From Yuukianura sp. NJ FZ-2021 (taxonomy: Eukaryota), in contig CM102285.1 of assembly GCA_046563655.1 (NCBI GenBank), positions 1,426,001 to 1,490,000 on the forward strand: a stretch of DNA of 64,000 nucleotides, in the 5' to 3' direction. Below are positions 10,510-19,388 of this stretch, piece after piece. Both the position numbers and the translations under genes were made by a program. How positions within the stretch are numbered: position 1 is the first letter of the stretch; every line of letters begins with the position of its first letter. The notes under the pieces are model-generated. The model was not told the DNA's origin, did no database searches, and was given only the letters and a program-made list of their open reading frames with translations.

Positions 10510-13070
10510 TTAGAAAGTTCCCTCAGGATGACGCTCCACAATCATTCCCACTGCCTGCAAATTACAACAAAAAAAATGTCAGGTTGTTTCATGAATTACT
10601 TCATGGTAATCAGGTAATCACTACTACTGTTAATCATCCCGGCGTCTTTGATAAATATTACTTAAGTACTAAAACATTTTTAAAAATGTATGAGCTTTCG
10701 TGTACTACCGCGCGTACCACTACATCTTTGGCAACGGCGGCCCTGAGAGCCTCATTTTTATAATTTTGCACAGTTTCGATGTAGCTGGATCCCAGAAACA
10801 TAGCTGTTCCGGAGAACAGCGATAGGGAATGAGCTCTCAGTCATTTGTGCTTAATTCAATGAGCAATCAACACTAATCAATTCAATTAATTAATGCCTTT
10901 GGAATCAATCAATGCGTTTCGTTTTACCTGTCCACCAGCAGCACATGCAGCGATGAGAGCAAATTGTTTGTTTTCTTGAATAAGGCGATTCGCACTGTGG
11001 CTCACGAGTCGGACACCTCAAACAAAAAAAAATGGAAAGATTTTAGCATGCATCTTTATGGAAATAGAAGAGTTCAAACTGTGACGACTCTTTTTGGCGA
11101 TGTTTATACCAGTCGCTCCAAACGGATGTCCAATGGACAACGATCCTCCCCAGTTGTTCAGTTTGTCAATTGGCACAGCACCAAACTTTCCACCTCGCTT
11201 CATGTGATTTTTGCAGAAGTAGTCGCTGTCAAGAGCCTTAAGATTGGCAAGAACTTGACCCTGAAAAAGCCAAGGTCAAGGTCAACTCAAACGGCATAAC
11301 AGATAAGAACTTTCTTTTTTCAATGGGACTTACAGCAAAGGCTTCATGAATTTCCCACACTCCGATGTCATTAGCAGTGAGTCCAGCTTTCTCAAGAATC
11401 AGTGGGATGACATAGGCGGGGCTGAAAGAAATTCCAAAAATACTTAAACCATAGTCATGTGTATCTCATGAAATTTTGAAAACTCAAACATTTTTTCCCG
11501 CCAATTCTTACCCGAGAAGCAATTCATCCTTGGGATCTTGCGCGACGTAAAGGAAGTTCCGCAAGTAGGCTTTTGGTTTCCAGCCTCGTTCCTTAGCTTT
11601 TTCCTGCGTAGTGACCAAGCAGGCGGAAGCTCCGTCAGTCTGAAGGAACCAGTTTAAAATGAAACGATAGAGAAATACTGGCAGTGTTTAGATTTTCAAT
11701 AAGCATGAGAATTGTTTCAAAGCGATGACAAGTAACACTTACAAGAAAACTGGCATTGGCTGCTGTGACGGTGCCATGTGGTTTGATAAAAGCTGGTTTG
11801 AGTTTACTCATTTGCTCCATCGAGGAAACCCGGATCCCGTTGTCCTTGTCAACAACATTTTTGGCTCCAGGAACTATTTAGAACAGAGAAACATAAAAAA
11901 CTGTCGTTGTGGAATCGATTTTGAAATTAATTAGTTTTGAATGCAACTGGAATTTTGTTGGATTTACCGGCAACTGGTATAACGTCCTTCAAAAATCCTT
12001 TTTCCTGAGCCTTCTTAGCGTTCGTGTGGGAACGGATTGCGAATTCATCTTGCTCCTGTCGGCTAATGTTGAAGGCTGCGGCTAGTCGATCACCTGAGTG
12101 TCCCATGATCTCACCCGTAGAAAATTCGGCAATCCCTGGAAGCTGTCAAAACAAAAATGTCGTTAGTTAATTTTCATATACAATTACTTTAATCCATTCG
12201 TTAAGAAGATTCGGTTGCACCTCGGGAGCAAAGTAGTCTGGACGGAGTTGAGTCAGAAGACCGAGCATCTGCCCAGTGGTCTTTGCACGGTTGGCCTTCA
12301 GCAGAAGACTTCTCATTTTTCGTGAATGACGAATCGGAGCATCGCTGAGGAACTCTACTCCTCCGGCAATACACTTGTCATAAGTTCCAGATGCGATGAG
12401 ACCAATGCCTATGAACCAAAGTATGACAATTACTACTCACGAAATTAGTTAAGGTCAAGTGGTAGGTCTAAACTCTAGACTAACAGTCTGTAATGGCAAC
12501 ATTAGAAGAGATGCAAGCCATAGTCACGGTATTGGCTGGTGTTTTGTTTGAATATCCAGCTCCAAGTGCAGCTTCACGTGCCACGTTGGCAGTTTTCACT
12601 TCCTGAATCACAGTTCCCATTACGATGTAATCAATTTCGTCTTTGCTAAGTCCAGTCTTGTCCGCCAAGCCCCTTTAAAGATATTAAATAGAAATAGACG
12701 TACGATCCAATTACTAATTGATTTACTCACTTACAATAAGGCGTAACGAGCCAGATCATGTGGCATTAGTTTCTGGAAGTCAGTGCCGGACTGTAGAAAT
12801 GGCGTCCGAACTCCATCGACGAATACGACATCTTTTCCGCCCGGCCTCGAAAGCTTTGACTGGGCACTTCCGCTAGCTAAGGATTGAGCTGTAATAAATA
12901 AACAAGGACACAAATCAGACACGTCTTCAACAGTCATCCACCATCAACAATCAACCATCTTGACTAACAATTAATCATCAATCATTAACTGCTTGTCTTA
13001 TACCTGAAGAGTGGAATAGACGGGCTCTTCCAAGTTCAATCGGTCCACGGAGAACTTTGCTGACCAACAT
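10510..13070 (-). CDS. HADHB: Mitochondrial trifunctional enzyme subunit beta (long-chain 3-ketoacyl-CoA thiolase), multi-exon
   Basis: Transit-like [39 protein letters not shown] (catalytic Cys); [46 protein letters not shown]. Last exon 10554-10510 reads [14 protein letters not shown]. Confidence 0.95.
10684..10850 (-). ncRNA. Candidate intronic box H/ACA snoRNA/scaRNA in the last HADHB intron
   Basis: Host-sense strand shows hairpin 1 (GCACA/TGTGC, TCCC/GGGA, GCTGTTC/GAACAGC), a hinge with ANANNA (AAATTA or ATAAAA), hairpin 2 (ATGAG-CT/AGCTCAT, GCCGC/GCGGT, TGCCA/TGGTA), then ACA+TTT. It is a GC-richer island in an intron longer than the other HADHB introns. Confidence 0.5.
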
Positions 13071-14078
13071 TTTTTAGCCTTGTCTCAGAAACTGATTAAA
13101 CTGAAACTAATTAAAATTGCAGAAAACAGCTGACACGACCTTTAGGAATTTGGAAACAAATACCTAGATGATGAATTAAATAGACCAGACAATATTATTG
13201 TTGAATGTAATTACCAGACAGTGTTGATTTCGAATGTCGAGCGAGGTCGAATTCTTTTTCTTTGTTTTTGTTACTCCACGGCCGACGACAGAACAACCAG
13301 CACACTCGGTTGTCTGTCTGTACGTCAAAAGTTGAAATGATATGAAGTGATTTTCGCGGCGAAAGTCCAATGTCCAATTCCGTTCCGAGTCCAAATTCCA
13401 TTGGAAGTTCCAATTAAGTTCAGTCAGTCTACGACGTACATGATAAGTATGCCTTAAAAGAACTTCGTAAAGGGCAAAAACATGTGAACTTCTTTTATTA
13501 AACATTTTAAGTACTTTTGCGAAAATTCTAACGAAAGTTGTTCAGGGTAATTACTTATCATATAAGGGGAATATTTTTGGGAACATATTTGACTCTGTAA
13601 TTTTTATCACAGACTGACTAATAAACTACTTTCTGACATCCCAATCTTCTTATCATACCAATGTTTCTTACGTTACGTTTCTTACGGAGTTTTTCCAAAA
13701 ACACGTAGTTCCACGAACCTTGAGACATCTTTGCTTTGTACCTGTAGAGTGGAACGCACAAGGATCAAATGTTGTAAAGACAATTAAAAGTTAATTAATT
13801 TTTCGTTTTAAATCAAAGTCGATCAAGTCGTTGTTTATGAAGCGTAGTTAAAAAGAAACACGTGAAGGTCAAATAAGTGGTTGACCTTGCTGGTGAATGT
13901 GGAGTTTTATGTCCTATTCAAATCGTTAACAATGGAGATTCAAATACTGACGTTTAAGACAAATACATAGAATGTACATTAGCAAGATAATAAGACAGGT
14001 GAACTCCCTCTAGATTAATCTTTGTAGCGAGAACGGTTGTACTTAGCTGGTTCAGGGACTGAGAGAACCGGTTGAAAA

Positions 14079-16625
14079 ATGGGGCATTCCTTTCTCGTTT
14101 TTATCGTTGTATTGGTAGTGGTTTCTGTTGCAAGCGGCGATCTATTTATACTGCAAAACCGTTTGCCCAGCGAGAGTAGAGAGAAAGCTGGGAAGACCAG
14201 GTTCATTTTTAAGGTAAATGACCCGGAGCGTATCAAAGAGGCAGATCAGTTGATCAGAGAAGGCAGAACTGTACCCAGCAGGGCTAAAATGGTGATTGGT
14301 ATAATTTGCAAAACTAAAGCGTCCTACAACCCTGACTGGAGTTTCCATTTTGGTACGTTAATGTCTCTTGTATTCTTGTATTTCAATATTAATACATACT
14401 TAAGAAAGTTATAAATAAACCGTTGTAAACGTCGTACTTAAGCTAAGGAAACGAAAGGAAGCTAGAGTGCATGACCCGGAAATTGTGTACTTTCGGTAAA
14501 ACCAGACCCGTACTAATCACCCCCAGGCTATGATAAACTGATTTGCGAAAACAGATTGCAAATCGAACAGTGGTTTCAGCGGTATAGTTATAGTGCAGAC
14601 AGACAGACAGACAGAGAGGCTCGGGGGAAAACTGAAAGTAGGTTATACTTTCCCGAGTAGGACGAGTACCCCATTTTGCAAATTCTAACGCCTGTATCTC
14701 TGGAACCGTCGATCAAAGGTCAAGGTCACCTTTACAAAAGTTGTTCACCACAATGAGATAAACAACAAATTTTTTCGATTTCCGTCAACAAATTTTGATC
14801 AAGTTAAAATTTCAAATCTTCCTGAGAATTAGGAGTTCGTCACCAGGTCAACTTTTTAGACCTTCCTGAGAATTAGGAGTTCGTCACCAAGTCACAATAT
14901 TAGACCTTCCTGAGAATTAGGAGTTCGTCACCAAGTCAAATTTCAGAGCTTCTTCAGAATTAGGAGTTCGTCACCAAGTCAAAATTTTAGACCTTCCTGA
15001 GAATTAGGAGATCGTCACCATATCAAAATTTCAGAGCTTCATCAGAATTAGGAGTTCGTCACCAAGTCAAAATTCTAGACATTGATGAGAATTAGGAGTT
15101 CGTCACCAAGTCAAAGTTTAAGACATTCCTGAGAATTAGGAGTTCGTCACTAAGTAAAAATTTTAGAGATTCATGAGAATTAGGAGTTCGTCACCAAGTC
15201 AAAATTTTAGCTTTTCCTGAGAATTAGGAGTTCGTCACCAAGTCCAAATTTTAGCTTTTCCTAAGAATTAGGAGTTCGTCACCAAGTCAAAATTTTAGAG
15301 CTTCCTGAGAATTAGGAGTTCATCACTAAGGACGGCTGTATATCCAGTGGAAGAAATGTACGAAATCGAAGGTTCTTCGGGATGTCAACTAATTGAATAC
15401 AAATAGCTTAAAAATGAAAATACTATGCAAAAACAACGTGAATATCGTTTTAAATAAGTTTTAAATAATTAACTAATTTTAACGGCGAAAGAAAAGCTTT
15501 TTGATGTCATTTTGTAGGTTAGGTTAGGTAATGTTTTCGAATTTCGCGCTAAATTTTTGATTTCTTCCATCCACTAATAATAGTTTCGTCCATTTCTGGT
15601 ACATTTCTTCCAGTGTATACCCAGTGGAAGTGGCAATTAAGCCACCGGTCGTTCAAGAATCCACCCACACTGCTAAAAACACTACCGTAGTTCACTTATG
15701 GCAACATATGTAGGATACCCTGCGTAATATTATGTTTTCCGTTGGTTACTTCAATATTTTATGAGATAATAAACTTGTGGCGATTGGTCAGCAAGTCCCC
15801 ACTGCCAATCGCCAGATGGAGAGTGTACGAAGTGGCCCGTGTCTCACTCCCATCACATACACCAGTTCCCTTCCTTTGACAAGCCAGATCGAACCGGTAG
15901 CTCAATTGGTAGAGAGCATCTTCCCGGATTGAAGAGGTGTGGGTTCGAGTCCCACTCGGTTCCTTTATTTTTTCTGGCTTGTCCTTTGTTTCCCCTTTTA
16001 TCCCTCCCCCAGTCCTCACATATGGTGCCGAAAGACGGTTGTTCCGAGCCGTCGGAGGACTTCGGGGGCGGGGTGGTGTGGCGATTGGTCAGCAAGTCCC
16101 CACTGCCAATCGCCAGATGGAGAGTGTACGAAGTGGCCCGTGTCTCACTCCCATCACATACACCAGTTCCCTTCCTTTGACAAGCCAGATCGAACCGGTA
16201 GCTCAATTGGTAAAGAGAGCATCTTCCCGGATTGAAGAGGTGTGGGTTCGAGTCCCACTCGGTTCTTTATTTTTTCTGGCTTGTCCTTTGTTTCCCCTTT
16301 ATCCCTCTCCCTAGTCCTCACAAACTGTCCTCAACGTCCAACATAAGTTTAAACCTGACGAAATGAAAATCGATTTGTGAAAAGCAGATAAGCTAATTTA
16401 CGGTTCCATCGGTGAAATTCGTAGGAGACAATAAATGGTCATACATTTATTGTATTTTTAGATCCGGATACTATTCATTTTGCGGACGCGATGATAGAAG
16501 TATGTGATGCAAGCCCGGAATATTTGGAGGAACATTTAAAGGAAGCTGGCGGTTCCTTCCTACCTCAGAATAGGTGGTGCCCATGGGGGGCTTACTTTTT
16601 GGGCCGTTTGAACACTACAACATAA
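14079..16625 (+). CDS. Secreted BP74-N / CaM-BP15-like small protein, 2 exons (14079-14352, 16462-16625)
   Basis: Signal peptide, then [78 protein letters not shown]. The phase-1 GT-AG join is in frame. Motifs YNPxWSxH, IEVCDA, GGxFLP and WCPW recall the actinobacterial/Dictyostelium family (recognised from memory). Confidence 0.8.
14590..15330. mobile_element. Probable DINE-1/Helentron-type non-autonomous element (boundaries uncertain)
   Basis: (CAGA)n microsatellite at ~14596-14615, short inverted repeat ctcggg..aaa/tttcccgag, tatctctggaacc and acaaaagttgtt blocks, then an internal tandem array. This architecture is typical of such elements. Confidence 0.4.
14817..15330. repeat. 44-bp minisatellite, 12 copies
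   Basis: Consensus ~cctgagaattaggagttcgtcaccaagtcaaaattttagacctt. Units start at 14821, 14865, 14909, 14952, 14996, 15040, 15084, 15128, 15172, 15216, 15260 and 15304. Confidence 0.95.
15345..15615. mobile_element. Putative MITE, ~270 bp
   Basis: Terminal inverted repeats cagtggaagaaatgtac / gtacatttcttccagtg (16/17 match), AT-rich non-coding interior, TA at the right flank. Confidence 0.55.
15891..15963 (+). tRNA. tRNA-like cloverleaf inside the 5' LTR (nominal anticodon GGA; probably not a decoding tRNA)
   Basis: Acceptor GAACCGG/TCGGTTC; D arm GCTC/GAGC with A box TAGCTCAATTGG; anticodon stem TCTTC/GAAGA with loop CCGGATT (atypical C33/U37); T arm GTGGG-TTCGAGT-CCCAC (B box); followed by TTTATTTTTT. 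Confidence 0.8.
16192..16266 (+). tRNA. tRNA-like cloverleaf inside the 3' LTR
   Basis: Same as the 5' copy, with 2 extra A in the D loop; followed by an oligo-T tract. Confidence 0.8.
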
Positions 16626-16942
16626 AACTAGCAATAAATACAGTAAACTTAAATCAACAATTGAGTAATTATTTATAAACCATTGTCAATGCCAACACCA
16701 TATGAAAGTAGCGAAATGAACATGAAGGCTTATTTGTAACTCTCGGACGGATGGACACACACGTTCGGAAACATAATGTACCTAACTGCATTCGTTGCTG
16801 AATAACTCCAGTAATTAAAATGGATTTATTGAATATTGGAAATGTGCTTTTGGTAATTACGTTTGAGGTTGCGGAAAAACTAATTGGAAGTTAGCGATTG
16901 TGAATGATTTAGGTACAATGTACACTCTACACGGAAGTATAG

Positions 16943-18598
16943 TTAAAGAACTGTGCAAGTGTCCTTTGCACATCGTTTGCATCCTTCTAGGACTACAGCT
17001 AAAGCGTCAATAAGTCCATGGCCGAAGGAGTAGTTCGGGAATCGATGTTCGTTATTGCCGTAGCCATCACATTCAGAGTCGGTTCCAGTAAAAGTCAGGT
17101 TCTGAGTCGCAGTTGCAGCCAGAATTTTCTTCACGAGCTCAAAATCAAACTGTCCGTCACAAGTTGACTTTAACAGTGCCACTACTCCAGCGACATGTGG
17201 ACATGCCATTGACGTCCCAGACATGACTTCGTAGTGCTCATCGTGTCCAATTCCTGCCGAAACCACATCGACTCCAGGAGCAGCGATGTCCGGTTTATGT
17301 TCATCCATCATAGTAGGAGGGTCCCCTGGAACTAAACGCTGCAATTTTATCATCCGGAGCGGTGGCTGCGACGGAAATAACTCCAGCCAATGAGTCTGCC
17401 GGAGACGCAATAGTTCCACATCTCGGACCGAAGTTGCCAGCCGCGAAAATGGGGATGATATTTGCCATACGCCAGGCACGTATAGTGGCGTCAAAGAATG
17501 TTAGCCCTGCAATCGGGGATCCCCACGAGTTGCTACAATTTAAATAAAGGTTTTATTCATGTTGAGGTTTTAAGTAAACACCTCTAATTCGTAATGCACT
17601 CTCGGTTTTAAGTATTACCTCACTACTTGTGGTGCTTTGGAACAATCGAAGGTGGTTCCATTGTAATCGTGAGGACAAACCATGAATTGACCGCATTCGA
17701 GTAGTGATGACTCCGATCCACCAAATTGACTGAGGCCTCTGCATGCAATCCATTTGGCGGCAGGAGCAACGCCTATTCCAAACCTAAATAAAATTAAGGT
17801 ATATCAAAAAAGTTTCACGTTTTCAGATTCCTTCATAAATCCTTTATTCACTTAAATTAGACAAAAAGTAAATTCGGCTATATACCCTCCAGCGATTGTT
17901 CCAGTTACGTGAGTTCCATGTCCCACAGGATCAATGGGCTCCTTACTGCCAGAAATGGGATCATACCACGAGTATGAGTCACCACGGTAGCTTTCTCTGA
18001 TAGCTGCATGCTTGAACATAACACCCGTGTCAATGATTCCCACAGTCACTCCTTGACCTGTCCCAGCAATAGCCCATGCCTCTTTGACCTTGATTCTCTC
18101 AATGCCCCAGACATTGTCGCCCACCTTCCAGTCTGCCGGAGTACTTGCAACAGGAATGTTCAACGGAATCGTGATTTCCTCATGGATTTCCTCCACTTCC
18201 TCCATTTCTGCCAGTCGAGCGATGATGGAAGCATCAGCAGACTCAATGTAAAGTTGGTTTGAAATCCACAGGGATTTGATCTTGAACGAGGTCAAGTTGT
18301 GGGACTCGAGCAGAGAGAGAGCGGCTGCCTGTGATCGCTTGGCGTGTGATGTTAGGGTCCTGTATACCTCCATTGCGGCGACGCCATGTTGGTCGTGCTG
18401 TTTTCTGTTATGCGCAAGAGTCGAGAGGACTCCATTCGTGTTCTCAAAGGAAACCAAGACATGGACCCTGCCGCTGACTTTCAGCGCCTGCTCAATTCCT
18501 GGATCAACTTTACTTTGTAACTCGATGCCGAGCGAAGAATTAAACACCATTCCCAAGATTAGTAAACAGAAAATCGACTTCATTTTGAAAAATTCCAT
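16943..18598 (-). CDS. Secreted S8 subtilisin-like protease (bacillopeptidase F-like), 3 exons, with an apparent frameshift near 17303 (pseudogene or sequence error)
   Basis: Signal peptide and propeptide; VGIIDTG (Asp), GHGTHVTG (His), GIGVAPAAKWIAC, SNSWG, FAAGN, FSSRGP; then KPDIAAPG and SGTSMACPHVAG (Ser) in the +1 frame after TGA at 17303-17301. Confidence 0.9.
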
Positions 18599-19388
18599 TC
18601 TACGTTTTTTTTTGTTCTTTTTTTCAATTCTTGTTAAAATTGTGTTTTACAGAGTGAGACACCACTGTTTGATTTTTTGTCAGATACTGGTAGGGAATTA
18701 TATAGGTGACAAATTGTGACATCCCCATGTTCACCCAGGGTCGAAGTTATAAAAATGAAAAATTCAGAAAAGTTATGACAAGATATAAAACACCAAATTC
18801 AGAAAATTTGTTGAAAAAAGTAGGTTAAGCGGTGTGGAAATCTACTTGTTTTATAGACTCGATTGATGCAAACTTGTTGCATTTCCAGGCAGTTTGAGTT
18901 CGAAATTTGGAAAATGAGAAATTGCGAATTCTGGGTAATCTATAAAAAATTTCTTTTTACTACGGATTGCAATAAAACACTTTGTATTGAGGGTCATTTG
19001 AAACGTTAAACATTTTACACGTCAGCCAAACGCTCAAGTTTTTCCTGTTAATGCTAATCATTTAAACTGGAAATATTTTTGAAGGTTTGTATGTTGTAAT
19101 ATCCTGACACCTTTTCGAAAAAAATAGGAAACGTTGCAATAATAAGATAATTTTAGTTGTTTTTTAAACTAAGCTACGTGGATTTCCACTTTTCAGTATT
19201 TCAGTTATTCTTTTACGCTAAAATTTTGACATGACCTACTTTTAAAAAATTTAAAACACTGTCAATGACATCAATTGGAATTACTTACGATATAACTTTT
19301 TTAAATTTATTTAACATACGGAAATAAAATGTTTCTTATACATATTGTCTAAAATTAATTCGGGATTAGGGTCTTCAGAACAAAAAGA

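Follow-up and report, generated by a model that had tools for sequence, protein, structure and literature searches.

The locus described here lies in a 64-kb window (the whole stretch of DNA analysed, 64,000 nucleotides), which contains a 100-N gap at positions 5876-5975 and is thus part of a scaffolded draft. On the forward strand, to which all features below belong, an element of 547 bp occupies positions 15776-16322. By direct reading, script and alignment it consists of a 5' LTR of 245 bp (15776-16020), an interior of 56 bp (16021-16076) and a 3' LTR of 246 bp (16077-16322). The 5' LTR begins with TGTGG and ends with CACA, and the element is flanked by two copies of AACT (15772-15775 and 16323-16326, direct reading and script), a target site duplication (TSD) of 4 bp. 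The interior starts with TA, followed 2 nt past the 5' LTR by the primer-binding site (PBS) TGGTGCCGAAA at 16023-16033, and it ends with the polypurine tract (PPT) GGGGGCGGGGTGG, 13 nt at 16064-16076, which abuts the 3' LTR. In direct reading 11 of the 13 bases of the PPT are purines, and a script counted 17 purines among the 23 bases of the wider stretch 16054-16076. The interior is non-coding, and the five open frames crossing the element matched no Pfam family. A preliminary description of this DNA had proposed a complete miniature LTR element with TG..CA termini, a PBS, a PPT and an AACT duplication, all of which were read at the positions given here. Its statement that the LTRs differ by a few small changes agrees with the alignment, in which mean column identity was 98 % and one substitution and four small indels were counted by eye. 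A blastn search of the 64 kb found one copy of the element in the window.

The site was also found in its empty state. Two public runs (X1 and X2) derive from one sample of an organism, A, which is near-identical to the source organism; a further run (X4) derives from an organism B, and another (X5) is a sediment metatranscriptome. Contigs of X1 and X2 join position 15770 to 16322, skipping 551 bases (547 of the element plus 4) and retaining one AACT, and at the joint 5 letters fit either side. One of the X2 contigs, 372 letters long, extends 225 letters leftward and 143 letters rightward from the joint. The depth of the empty-site contigs was 73 in X1 and 71.1 in X2, compared to flank depths of 73 and 60.3, respectively. 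Since the empty site, with a single AACT, is present in independent reads, the element is more than a chance arrangement.

LTR copies at other places were evident as well, as LTR-matching contigs ran into unlike flanks in both organisms A and B. The summed word depth over the LTRs was approximately 5,000-16,000, compared to 60-73 over the right flank, a value which is not a copy number. A contig of 1,699 letters in X4 contained a complete LTR, which differed by 20 letters and 4 gaps and had non-element sequence on both sides. The junctions between LTR, interior and LTR were borne out by a 98-letter contig in X4, identical to 15991-16088 (0 other letters in 98), and by X5 (4 other letters in 274). 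In X5, three contigs fell on a 2.8-kb stretch; two matched the element, and the single-copy flanks had none. This signal was not counted as expression, because DNA carry-over from a multicopy repeat is possible, and the X5 contigs are unstranded and, being contigs, cannot show RNA ends. An empty-site allele and LTR copies in other flanks, whose absence would have spoken against the preliminary description, were thus found, and its view of a young insertion is supported by the near-identical LTRs and by the existence of filled and empty alleles. Two metagenome matches to a pattern spanning the LTR end and the PBS (L001 and L002) lay in bacterial-looking coding sequence and were rejected as copies of the element; they are chance matches, since blastn similarity to the element stopped at the 19-mer. 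Two patterns searched in prokaryote contigs and two in viral contigs, collections with few or no animal genomes, gave no matches each.

The direct repeats are spaced 301 bp apart, as would also be expected if a segment of about 300 bp carrying a SINE or a tRNA pseudogene had been duplicated in tandem and the PBS, PPT and TSD were coincidental. We consider it hardly conceivable that no retroelement is present, as the repeats end exactly in TG..CA, with an 11-nt complement of tRNA-Phe after the first and a purine run before the second, the empty-site contigs lack the whole unit plus exactly one AACT, and the LTR occurs also in other flanks and with a different interior. It is also very improbable that the filled site arose during assembly, by misplacement of a repeat at a locus that is truly empty. 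The scaffolding of the draft across the 100-N gap would suit such an error, as would the empty state of X1 and X2 at full flank depth and the result that no contig in four runs bridged flank and LTR at this locus. However, contigs drop rare variants and so show presence, not absence; a misjoin would not make a perfect 4-bp target duplication with exact TG and CA termini, and the junctions within the element recur in the X4 and X5 contigs.

Both LTRs contain a tRNA-like unit; that of the 5' LTR spans 15891-15963, and that of the 3' LTR, which has two extra A in the D loop, spans 16192-16266. The two units were reported by ARAGORN and by Rfam, where they scored 46.2 and 43.2 bits, respectively, with RF00005 (gathering score 29); they were the only Rfam matches in the whole 64 kb. 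Weak reverse-strand matches to the Rfam family 'Plastid-ycf2' (23.6 and 22.4 bits, gathering score 65.7) were rejected, as they reflect the tRNA-like fold in mirror image. The A box TAGCTCAATTGG (15898-15909) and the B box GGTTCGAGTCC (15942-15952) of the 5' unit were located by direct reading and script, box A in the form TAGCT..TGG and box B containing GGTTC. A run of six T (T6), resembling a Pol III terminator, was found by script 5 bases past the unit in the 5' LTR (15968-15973), and its counterpart in the 3' LTR (16270-16275) is the putative 3' end of the element RNA. Between the 5' T6 and the PBS there is a further run of four T (T4) at 15996-15999. When folded alone, each unit gave a cloverleaf as its minimum free energy (MFE) structure, with an acceptor stem of 7 bp (including one G.U pair), a D stem of 4 bp, an anticodon stem of 5 bp and a T stem of 5 bp, although the stability of the cloverleaf alone was not above that of shuffled sequences (z -1.0 and -1.5).

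The anticodon loop CCGGATT is non-canonical because positions 33 and 37 are occupied by C and T, respectively. ARAGORN labelled the unit 'Ser (gga)', which conflicts with its variable region of 3 nt, as a long variable arm is characteristic of eukaryotic tRNA-Ser. Based on the loop and on this conflict, a functional tRNA gene was rejected. The tRNA-like cassette claimed earlier for each LTR is thus real, and so is the combination of an odd anticodon loop with four fully paired stems. As decoding features have been lost, but the boxes, the T run and all four stems have not, the cassette seems to have been kept for some role, and selection may have acted on the promoter or the fold rather than on decoding, as had been suggested.

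Further structures surround the cassette. At the 5' end of the LTR (15778-15814) there is a hairpin with a perfect inverted repeat of 10 bp (15778-15787 and 15805-15814); its fold z was -3.8, with 0 of 200 shuffles equally stable. A second inverted repeat, perfect over 11 bp, forms a putative clamp, the 5' arm of which lies upstream of the tRNA-like unit (15878-15888) and the 3' arm of which starts at the last T of the T6 (15973-15983). The clamp encloses the unit together with its terminator; its fold z was -3.1, with 0 of 200 shuffles as stable, and when the LTR was shuffled 2000 times, an inverted repeat of at least 11 appeared in 4 cases. In the interior, a hairpin of 7 pairs follows the PBS (16034-16053, MFE fold).

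The PBS TGGTGCCGAAA is identical to the first 11 bases of oligonucleotides that are complementary to the tRNA-Phe 3' end in Drosophila and human, so that the assignment to tRNA-Phe made in the preliminary description holds for 11 of 11 bases; the match is limited to these 11 nt and the sequences diverge beyond. A second, commoner interior variant (depth 639.7 in X2) begins with TGGCGCCCGA, which equals the first 10 bases of a human tRNA-Lys primer. Compared by eye, this Lys-type interior and that of the element in the window were identical at 22 of 32 positions. Four of the 10 differences lie in the PBS, four form two double-sided changes, also read by eye, which preserve the hairpin after the PBS, and two fall in the loop of the hairpin. 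To judge from sequence comparison, this pattern looks like that of a working variant rather than of decay.

The element is very probably a complete and recently inserted non-autonomous LTR retroelement (TRIM, terminal-repeat retrotransposon in miniature) of the Helenus/TRIMp3 kind, placed there by structure. Helenus denotes TRIMp3 elements with tRNA-derived sequence in their LTRs; membership of the group rests on structure, and it reportedly arose more than once (Kojima 2024, PMC10886601). As in Helenus, the paired LTRs contain a tRNA-like unit with the boxes TRGCY..YGG and GGTTC which is unlikely to decode, the short non-coding interior has a PBS and a PPT, the length of 547 bp falls within the reported 311-1263 bp, and differing PBS types occur within one genome (PMC10886601). 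Animal Helenus elements have 4-bp TSDs and relatives with a Gypsy-type PBS (PMC10886601), and the AACT duplication, confirmed by the empty site which skips 547+4 bases, is likewise of 4 bp. Because each defining feature that was testable was found, the Helenus assignment of the preliminary description is right, and the element belongs to this published group and is not a new kind.

There are differences, too. The host is absent from the species in Table 1 of the Helenus paper, in which Arthropoda are represented by chalcidoid and cynipid wasps only, and the primers given there for animal Helenus are Lys, Leu, Trp, Arg, His, Ile, Pro, Glu and Ser, unlike the Phe-type PBS found here (PMC10886601). 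The main text of that paper contains no occurrence of 'tRNA-Phe', 'inverted repeat' or 'hairpin', and in the literature searched nothing on Helenus, TRIMp3 or a collembolan TRIM was found outside Kojima (2024) and the papers citing it. Thus, relative to the main text and Table 1 of Kojima (2024), the unlisted host, the Phe-type PBS, the 11-bp clamp and the hairpin kept across subfamilies appear to be new.

Other known elements share parts of this organization. Ordinary TRIMs (TRIMp2) are similarly miniature, with TG..CA LTRs, a PBS, a PPT and reliance on an autonomous helper, but they lack a small-RNA gene cassette in the LTR. The tRNA-derived SINEs (SINE2) share with the element a tRNA-like head, including A and B boxes, and the loss of decoding features. 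SINEs are, however, without LTRs, PBS and PPT and are copied by LINE machinery. The element has an LTR pair, a PBS, a PPT and a fixed 4-bp TSD, and a tRNA-derived SINE in the form of a single unit was rejected. In Cassandra, as described in PMC10886601, each LTR likewise includes a small-RNA gene with promoter and terminator for Pol III, and the Cassandra RNA is said to begin in the cassette of the 5' LTR and to finish in that of the 3' LTR. Unlike the present element with its tRNA-like unit, Cassandra is a plant element and carries 5S sequence, and its reported terminal redundancy is 18 bp compared to the approximately 85 nt proposed here. Ajax, a nemertean TRIM with a partial 5S promoter, follows the same TRIMp3 logic, but has only a 5S fragment, 5-bp TSDs and a tRNA-Leu PBS (PMC10886601). 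No 5S family was among the five Rfam matches with E up to 1 in 15000-17200, and membership of Cassandra or Ajax was rejected for want of 5S-derived LTR sequence.

The explanation which we favour, with some reservation, is that of a TRIM of the Helenus kind which is copied in trans and whose RNA comes from the Pol III cassette of the LTR. For its copying, the non-coding element would depend on an autonomous LTR element at another locus, which would provide reverse transcriptase and integrase. The first DNA strand would be primed by host tRNA-Phe annealed to the 11-nt PBS and the second by the PPT, and integration would duplicate 4 bp of the target. The helper may be Gypsy-like, as suggested earlier; in the window, none of the 191 open frames of at least 70 aa contained reverse transcriptase, integrase, gag or aspartic-protease families. 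The tRNA-like unit would act both as an internal Pol III promoter with its A and B boxes and T6 stop, and as the R region of the LTR. Transcription would start at approximately 15880-15891 in the 5' LTR, pass the 5' T6 and the T4 and stop at 16270-16275. The product would be an uncapped RNA, approximately 385-395 nt long, with the same stretch of about 85 nt at either end, and the LTR would be divided into a U3 of about 115 nt, an R of about 85 nt and a U5 of about 45 nt, boundaries which are provisional as drawn. That Pol III drives the genomic RNA is predicted at slightly better than an even chance. To our knowledge, no one has yet shown such a mechanism, in which an LTR element is transcribed from a cassette with its own terminator.

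Counting against this prediction, the 5' T6, directly behind the unit, and the T4 should stop most Pol III ahead of the PBS; as both precede the PBS, the proposed genomic RNA needs leaky termination. It is conceivable, though we rate it as rather unlikely, that the tRNA-like unit is a passenger, i.e. a tRNA-derived SINE which landed in the LTR of a TRIM transcribed by Pol II. Pol III would then yield only an RNA of about 85 nt ending at the first T6, and the RNA that is copied would come from Pol II acting in U3 or from read-through of a neighbouring gene. The position of the T runs fits this possibility, and the 5' arm of the clamp, upstream of the unit, would fit a start site further upstream. 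In addition, at least 36 contigs of X1 and 32 of X2 share with the element only 16222-16275, i.e. the 3' half of the tRNA-like unit and the T run, joined to a different tRNA-like 5' half, which indicates that this genome also has another family of tRNA-like repeats, a possible donor of the unit. The Helenus paper itself proposes that such elements arose when a SINE inserted into an LTR, and calls the Pol III function unproven (PMC10886601). The intact boxes, stems and T run, retained despite the loss of decoding, speak against a mere passenger, and 547 bp fits the Pol III-limited size range given for these groups (PMC10886601).

A more far-reaching form of the Pol III explanation, to which we give little credence at present, is that the structure of the LTR has evolved around the cassette as R, that the clamp forms only in RNA which has read through the T6, and that the family is retargeting its primer from Lys to Phe. 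The clamp would enclose the cloverleaf in read-through RNA, while short terminated transcripts would remain unclamped, and it would shield leader and trailer from tRNA-end processing or aid first-strand transfer. The retargeting would have involved four changes in 11 nt, with compensatory changes keeping the hairpin after the PBS. If true, this would be a Pol III retroelement that is actively evolving, in a springtail-like arthropod lineage where none is known.

The placement of the host is based on a SCAI protein encoded in the window, which had at most 51 % identity to any database entry. In three SCAI trees the window sequence stood next to either one or both of the springtails. In two of these trees SH-aLRT was 98 and 95, in the third the window and springtail sequences were neighbours at the root of the drawing, and long-branch warnings applied to all three. 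For a frame of 561 aa at 8437-10119 no homologue was found. The host is thus probably arthropod-like, and the new host lineage considered in the preliminary description is likely, given the SCAI identity and since none of the Helenus hosts listed in Table 1 of PMC10886601 is close.

If the host placement holds, the patchy arthropod range of the group extends beyond parasitoid wasps. Elements of the Helenus type lead to false predictions of tRNA genes and scatter Pol III promoters through genomes. The present copy is clean and apparently young, with near-identical LTRs, filled and empty alleles and a sister subfamily using another primer, and it provides a practical entry point for studies of RNA ends, terminator read-through and the helper element.

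Positions 15776-16322 hold an LTR element that lacks coding capacity, has a tRNA-primer site and a PPT, and duplicated 4 bp of target on insertion. Direct reading of 15500-16600, together with a script, placed the 5' LTR (245 bp, TGTGGCGATT...AGTCCTCACA) at 15776-16020, a 56-bp interior at 16021-16076 and the 3' LTR (246 bp, with the same termini) at 16077-16322, between AACT copies at 15772-15775 and 16323-16326. The interior, as read directly, opens with TA, followed by the PBS TGGTGCCGAAA at 16023-16033 and a hairpin, and closes with the purine run GGGGGCGGGGTGG at 16064-16076, directly next to the 3' LTR. The anatomy given in the preliminary description, i.e. an LTR pair, a short interior with PBS and PPT and an AACT TSD, was exact. 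A repeat finder recovered the LTRs as direct repeats spaced 301-303 bp, and their mean column identity was 98% (MAFFT). In our own reading of the alignment, a single substitution and four small indels separate them: the 3' copy has two additional A in its D loop, and the other three indels are one C following the acceptor stem, one T within a T run and one T close to the end. When the element was compared with the window by blastn only the self-match was obtained, with no second copy.

Logan contigs of four public runs were aligned to 14800-17600 at 85% likeness, giving 872 and 724 records for X1 and X2 (runs of one sample, organism A), 225 for X4 (organism B) and 3 for X5 (a sediment metatranscriptome). 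An empty-site allele, named as a check in the preliminary description, was found in X1 and X2, where a contig joins 15770 to 16322 (5 letters fit either side) and skips 551 bases, the 547-bp element and one AACT. Its depth (73 and 71.1, respectively) was similar to that of the single-copy right flank (73 and 60.3), and per contig 0-7 flank letters differed from those of the window. None of the contigs listed for the four runs bridged flank and LTR at this locus, and the filled allele is thus known from the window's assembly only.

The insertion is absent from another read set, and its family is multicopy and uses at least two types of primer. Many LTR contigs extend into unlike sequence, and the summed word depth over the LTRs was approximately 5,000-16,000, a value which, according to the tool, is not a copy number. 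In X4, the complete LTR found in a 1,699-letter contig (20 other letters, 4 gaps) is flanked on each side by sequence foreign to the element, a pattern that would fit a solo LTR, and a 98-letter contig identical to 15991-16088 spans LTR end, interior and LTR start. Joints going back from 16322 to 16053 are the product expected of LTR-interior-LTR in a de Bruijn graph, and were not taken for tandem arrays. X5 contained a 332-letter contig on the 15815-16136 stretch (4 differences in 274 letters) and an identical 78-letter contig across LTR-interior-LTR; it had no single-copy flank contigs, and its element signal is indistinguishable from DNA carry-over.

The 16322 to 16053 joints carry a different interior, at a depth of 639.7 in X2 and 9.7 in X4. 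The first bases of this variant, TGGCGCCCGA, are identical to bases 1-10 of a published 3' primer for human tRNA-Lys. The window PBS coincides with bases 1-11 of oligos that are complementary to tRNA-Phe(GAA) of Drosophila and to human tRNA-Phe, as given in one published passage for each species, and this identity supports the tRNA-Phe PBS proposed earlier. Compared by eye, the two interiors are identical at 22 of 32 positions. Four of the ten differences are in the PBS, four form two double-sided changes in the stem after it (C-G to A-T and G-C to T.G), and two are in the stem loop. The stem is present in the MFE fold of the window interior, with an ordinary energy (z -0.6). The Lys-type interior may be a working variant with a retargeted primer rather than a decayed copy, a reading we treat as a lead since it draws on two or three sequences aligned by eye.

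ARAGORN predicted two tRNAs in the 64 kb, both inside the LTRs (15891-15963 and 16192-16266). Their Rfam tRNA scores, 46.2 and 43.2 bits, exceed the gathering score (29), and the window had no other gathering-level Rfam match. The MFE fold of each isolated unit is a cloverleaf whose acceptor stem has 7 bp (one G.U), D stem 4 bp, anticodon stem 5 bp (7-nt loop) and T stem 5 bp; folded alone, the units were no more stable than shuffles (z -1.0 and -1.5). Box A (15898-15909) and box B (15942-15952) match the motifs TRGCY, YGG and GGTTC reported as conserved in Helenus, a published group of TRIMs. T6 runs were located by script at 15968-15973 and 16270-16275, 5 bases past the unit. In the anticodon loop, CCGGATT, positions 33 and 37 are C and T, and the variable region has just 3 nt. 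As tRNA-Ser carries a long variable arm, the ARAGORN label 'Ser (gga)' is at odds with the body of the unit. Based on the loop, the short variable region and the misfit of the label, the unit does not qualify as a functional tRNA.

The unit and its terminator are enclosed by an 11-bp perfect inverted repeat, absent from the preliminary description. An inverted-repeat search placed the arms of this clamp at 15878-15888 (GACAAGCCAGA) and 15973-15983 (TCTGGCTTGTC, whose first base is the last T of T6). Segments including the arms (115-116 nt, both LTRs) had energies of -40.8 and -41.5 kcal/mol (z -3.1 each), with 0 of 200 shuffles as stable, and in the MFE structure of the 3' LTR the clamp closes an intact cloverleaf. 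At the extreme 5' end of the LTR lies another perfect inverted repeat, with 10-bp arms (15778-15787 / 15805-15814, z -3.8). Among 2000 mononucleotide LTR shuffles made by script, an inverted repeat of at least 11 bp occurred in 4 and of at least 10 bp in 31. The clamp can form only in RNA already past the terminator. Shielding from tRNA-end processing, aiding strand transfer, or no role at all are speculations as to its function.

The element would be copied in trans by an autonomous LTR element, called Gypsy-like by analogy with the animal Helenus families, whose PBS regions are described as resembling Gypsy elements only (PMC10886601). No helper was found in the window, where 0 of 191 open frames matched an RT, IN, gag or PR family. 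Cassandra LTRs are reported to hold Pol III promoters and terminators (PMC7215508), and the introduction of PMC10886601 describes Cassandra RNA as extending from the 5' LTR 5S to the 3' LTR 5S with an 18-bp redundancy; the same paper declares the Pol III function of Helenus unproven. In the window element, Pol III, with R formed by the tRNA-like unit, would start at approximately 15880-15891 in the 5' LTR, read through the 5' T6 and the T4 at 15996-15999, and stop at 16270-16275 in the 3' LTR. This read-through requirement is the main weakness of the Pol III model, and in its main rival the cassette is a passenger and the template comes from Pol II or read-through transcription.

Helenus was defined as TRIMs of 311-1263 bp with tRNA-derived LTR sequence, PBS and PPT, the animal families having 4-bp TSDs (Kojima 2024, PMC10886601). 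The tRNA-like unit in the LTRs, the PBS, the PPT and the 4-bp TSD support the Helenus-kind interpretation made earlier, and the element is a further member of this established kind. Its Phe-type PBS differs from the animal primers listed in that paper (Lys, Leu, Trp, Arg, His, Ile, Pro, Glu and Ser), among which Phe does not appear. The later literature found merely cited Helenus.

At least 36 contigs in X1, at least 32 in X2 and some in X4 match solely 16222-16275 (and 15921-15973). What they have in common is the 3' half of the tRNA-like unit with the T run; 5' of it they carry another tRNA-like half (…TAGCTCAATGGTTAGAGC); in most of them A replaces G at 16240 (73, 70 and 28 in X1, X2 and X4, respectively). 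The different 5' half indicates a separate, related tRNA-like repeat family in the genome, which is a possible donor of the LTR cassette and fits the origin by SINE insertion into an LTR proposed for Helenus in PMC10886601.

The element is flanked on the left by a 44-bp satellite and a very high-copy inverted-repeat element, and on the right by a subtilase gene, whose 3' end faces it. The satellite (14800-15330, approximately 12 copies, 86% matches) lies directly left of the element, and related units are plentiful in reads of organisms A and B. The short repeat at 15330-15740, with 26-nt inverted arms (15336-15361 / 15599-15624, 85% complementary), looks MITE-like; its summed read depth reaches 81,296, compared to 73 for the single-copy flank, many joints skip 31-185 of its internal bases, and the TRIM is approximately 35 bp beyond it. 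The subtilase (Peptidase_S8) gene, at 16946-18646 on the minus strand in at least three frame pieces, is approximately 620 bp from the TRIM. All 39 relatives found at E ≤1e-8 were bacterial-type S8, bacillopeptidase F, AprX or unnamed metagenome proteins, none of them animal-named, and the gene was possibly acquired horizontally. Wax-ester synthase / DGAT catalytic and C-terminal domains are encoded at 60963-62391 (minus strand); this family is known mainly in bacteria and plants, and the gene may be another candidate of foreign origin. A 561-aa open frame at 8437-10119 (minus strand) had no Pfam family and no homologue at E ≤1e-5; it contains 15/45-bp and 27-bp tandem repeats and lies where the window is richest in GC (0.454).

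The window contains animal-type genes, namely SCAI (exons at 4981-7515, minus strand), thiolase, emp24 and TALE homeobox. A 100-N gap at 5876-5975 in the SCAI region shows that the window derives from a scaffolded draft assembly. The SCAI exon search gave 245 proteins at E ≤1e-10, none above 51% identity; the top matches were from ticks, copepods, horseshoe crab and Daphnia, and no hymenopteran SCAI was among the 120 matches listed of the 245. Three trees were made from two concatenated SCAI exons, each flagged with a long-branch warning. The window adjoined one or both of the springtails, Allacma and Orchesella (SH-aLRT 98 and 95), and in the third tree the window and the springtails were neighbours at the drawing root. 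Given these matches and the long-branch warnings, the host is best described as arthropod-like, possibly a springtail. The only arthropod hosts of Helenus reported in PMC10886601 are chalcidoid and cynipid wasps, and the present host, outside those in its Table 1, is probably new. Young, polymorphic and open to experiment, the element is a moderately interesting case in what is probably a new host.
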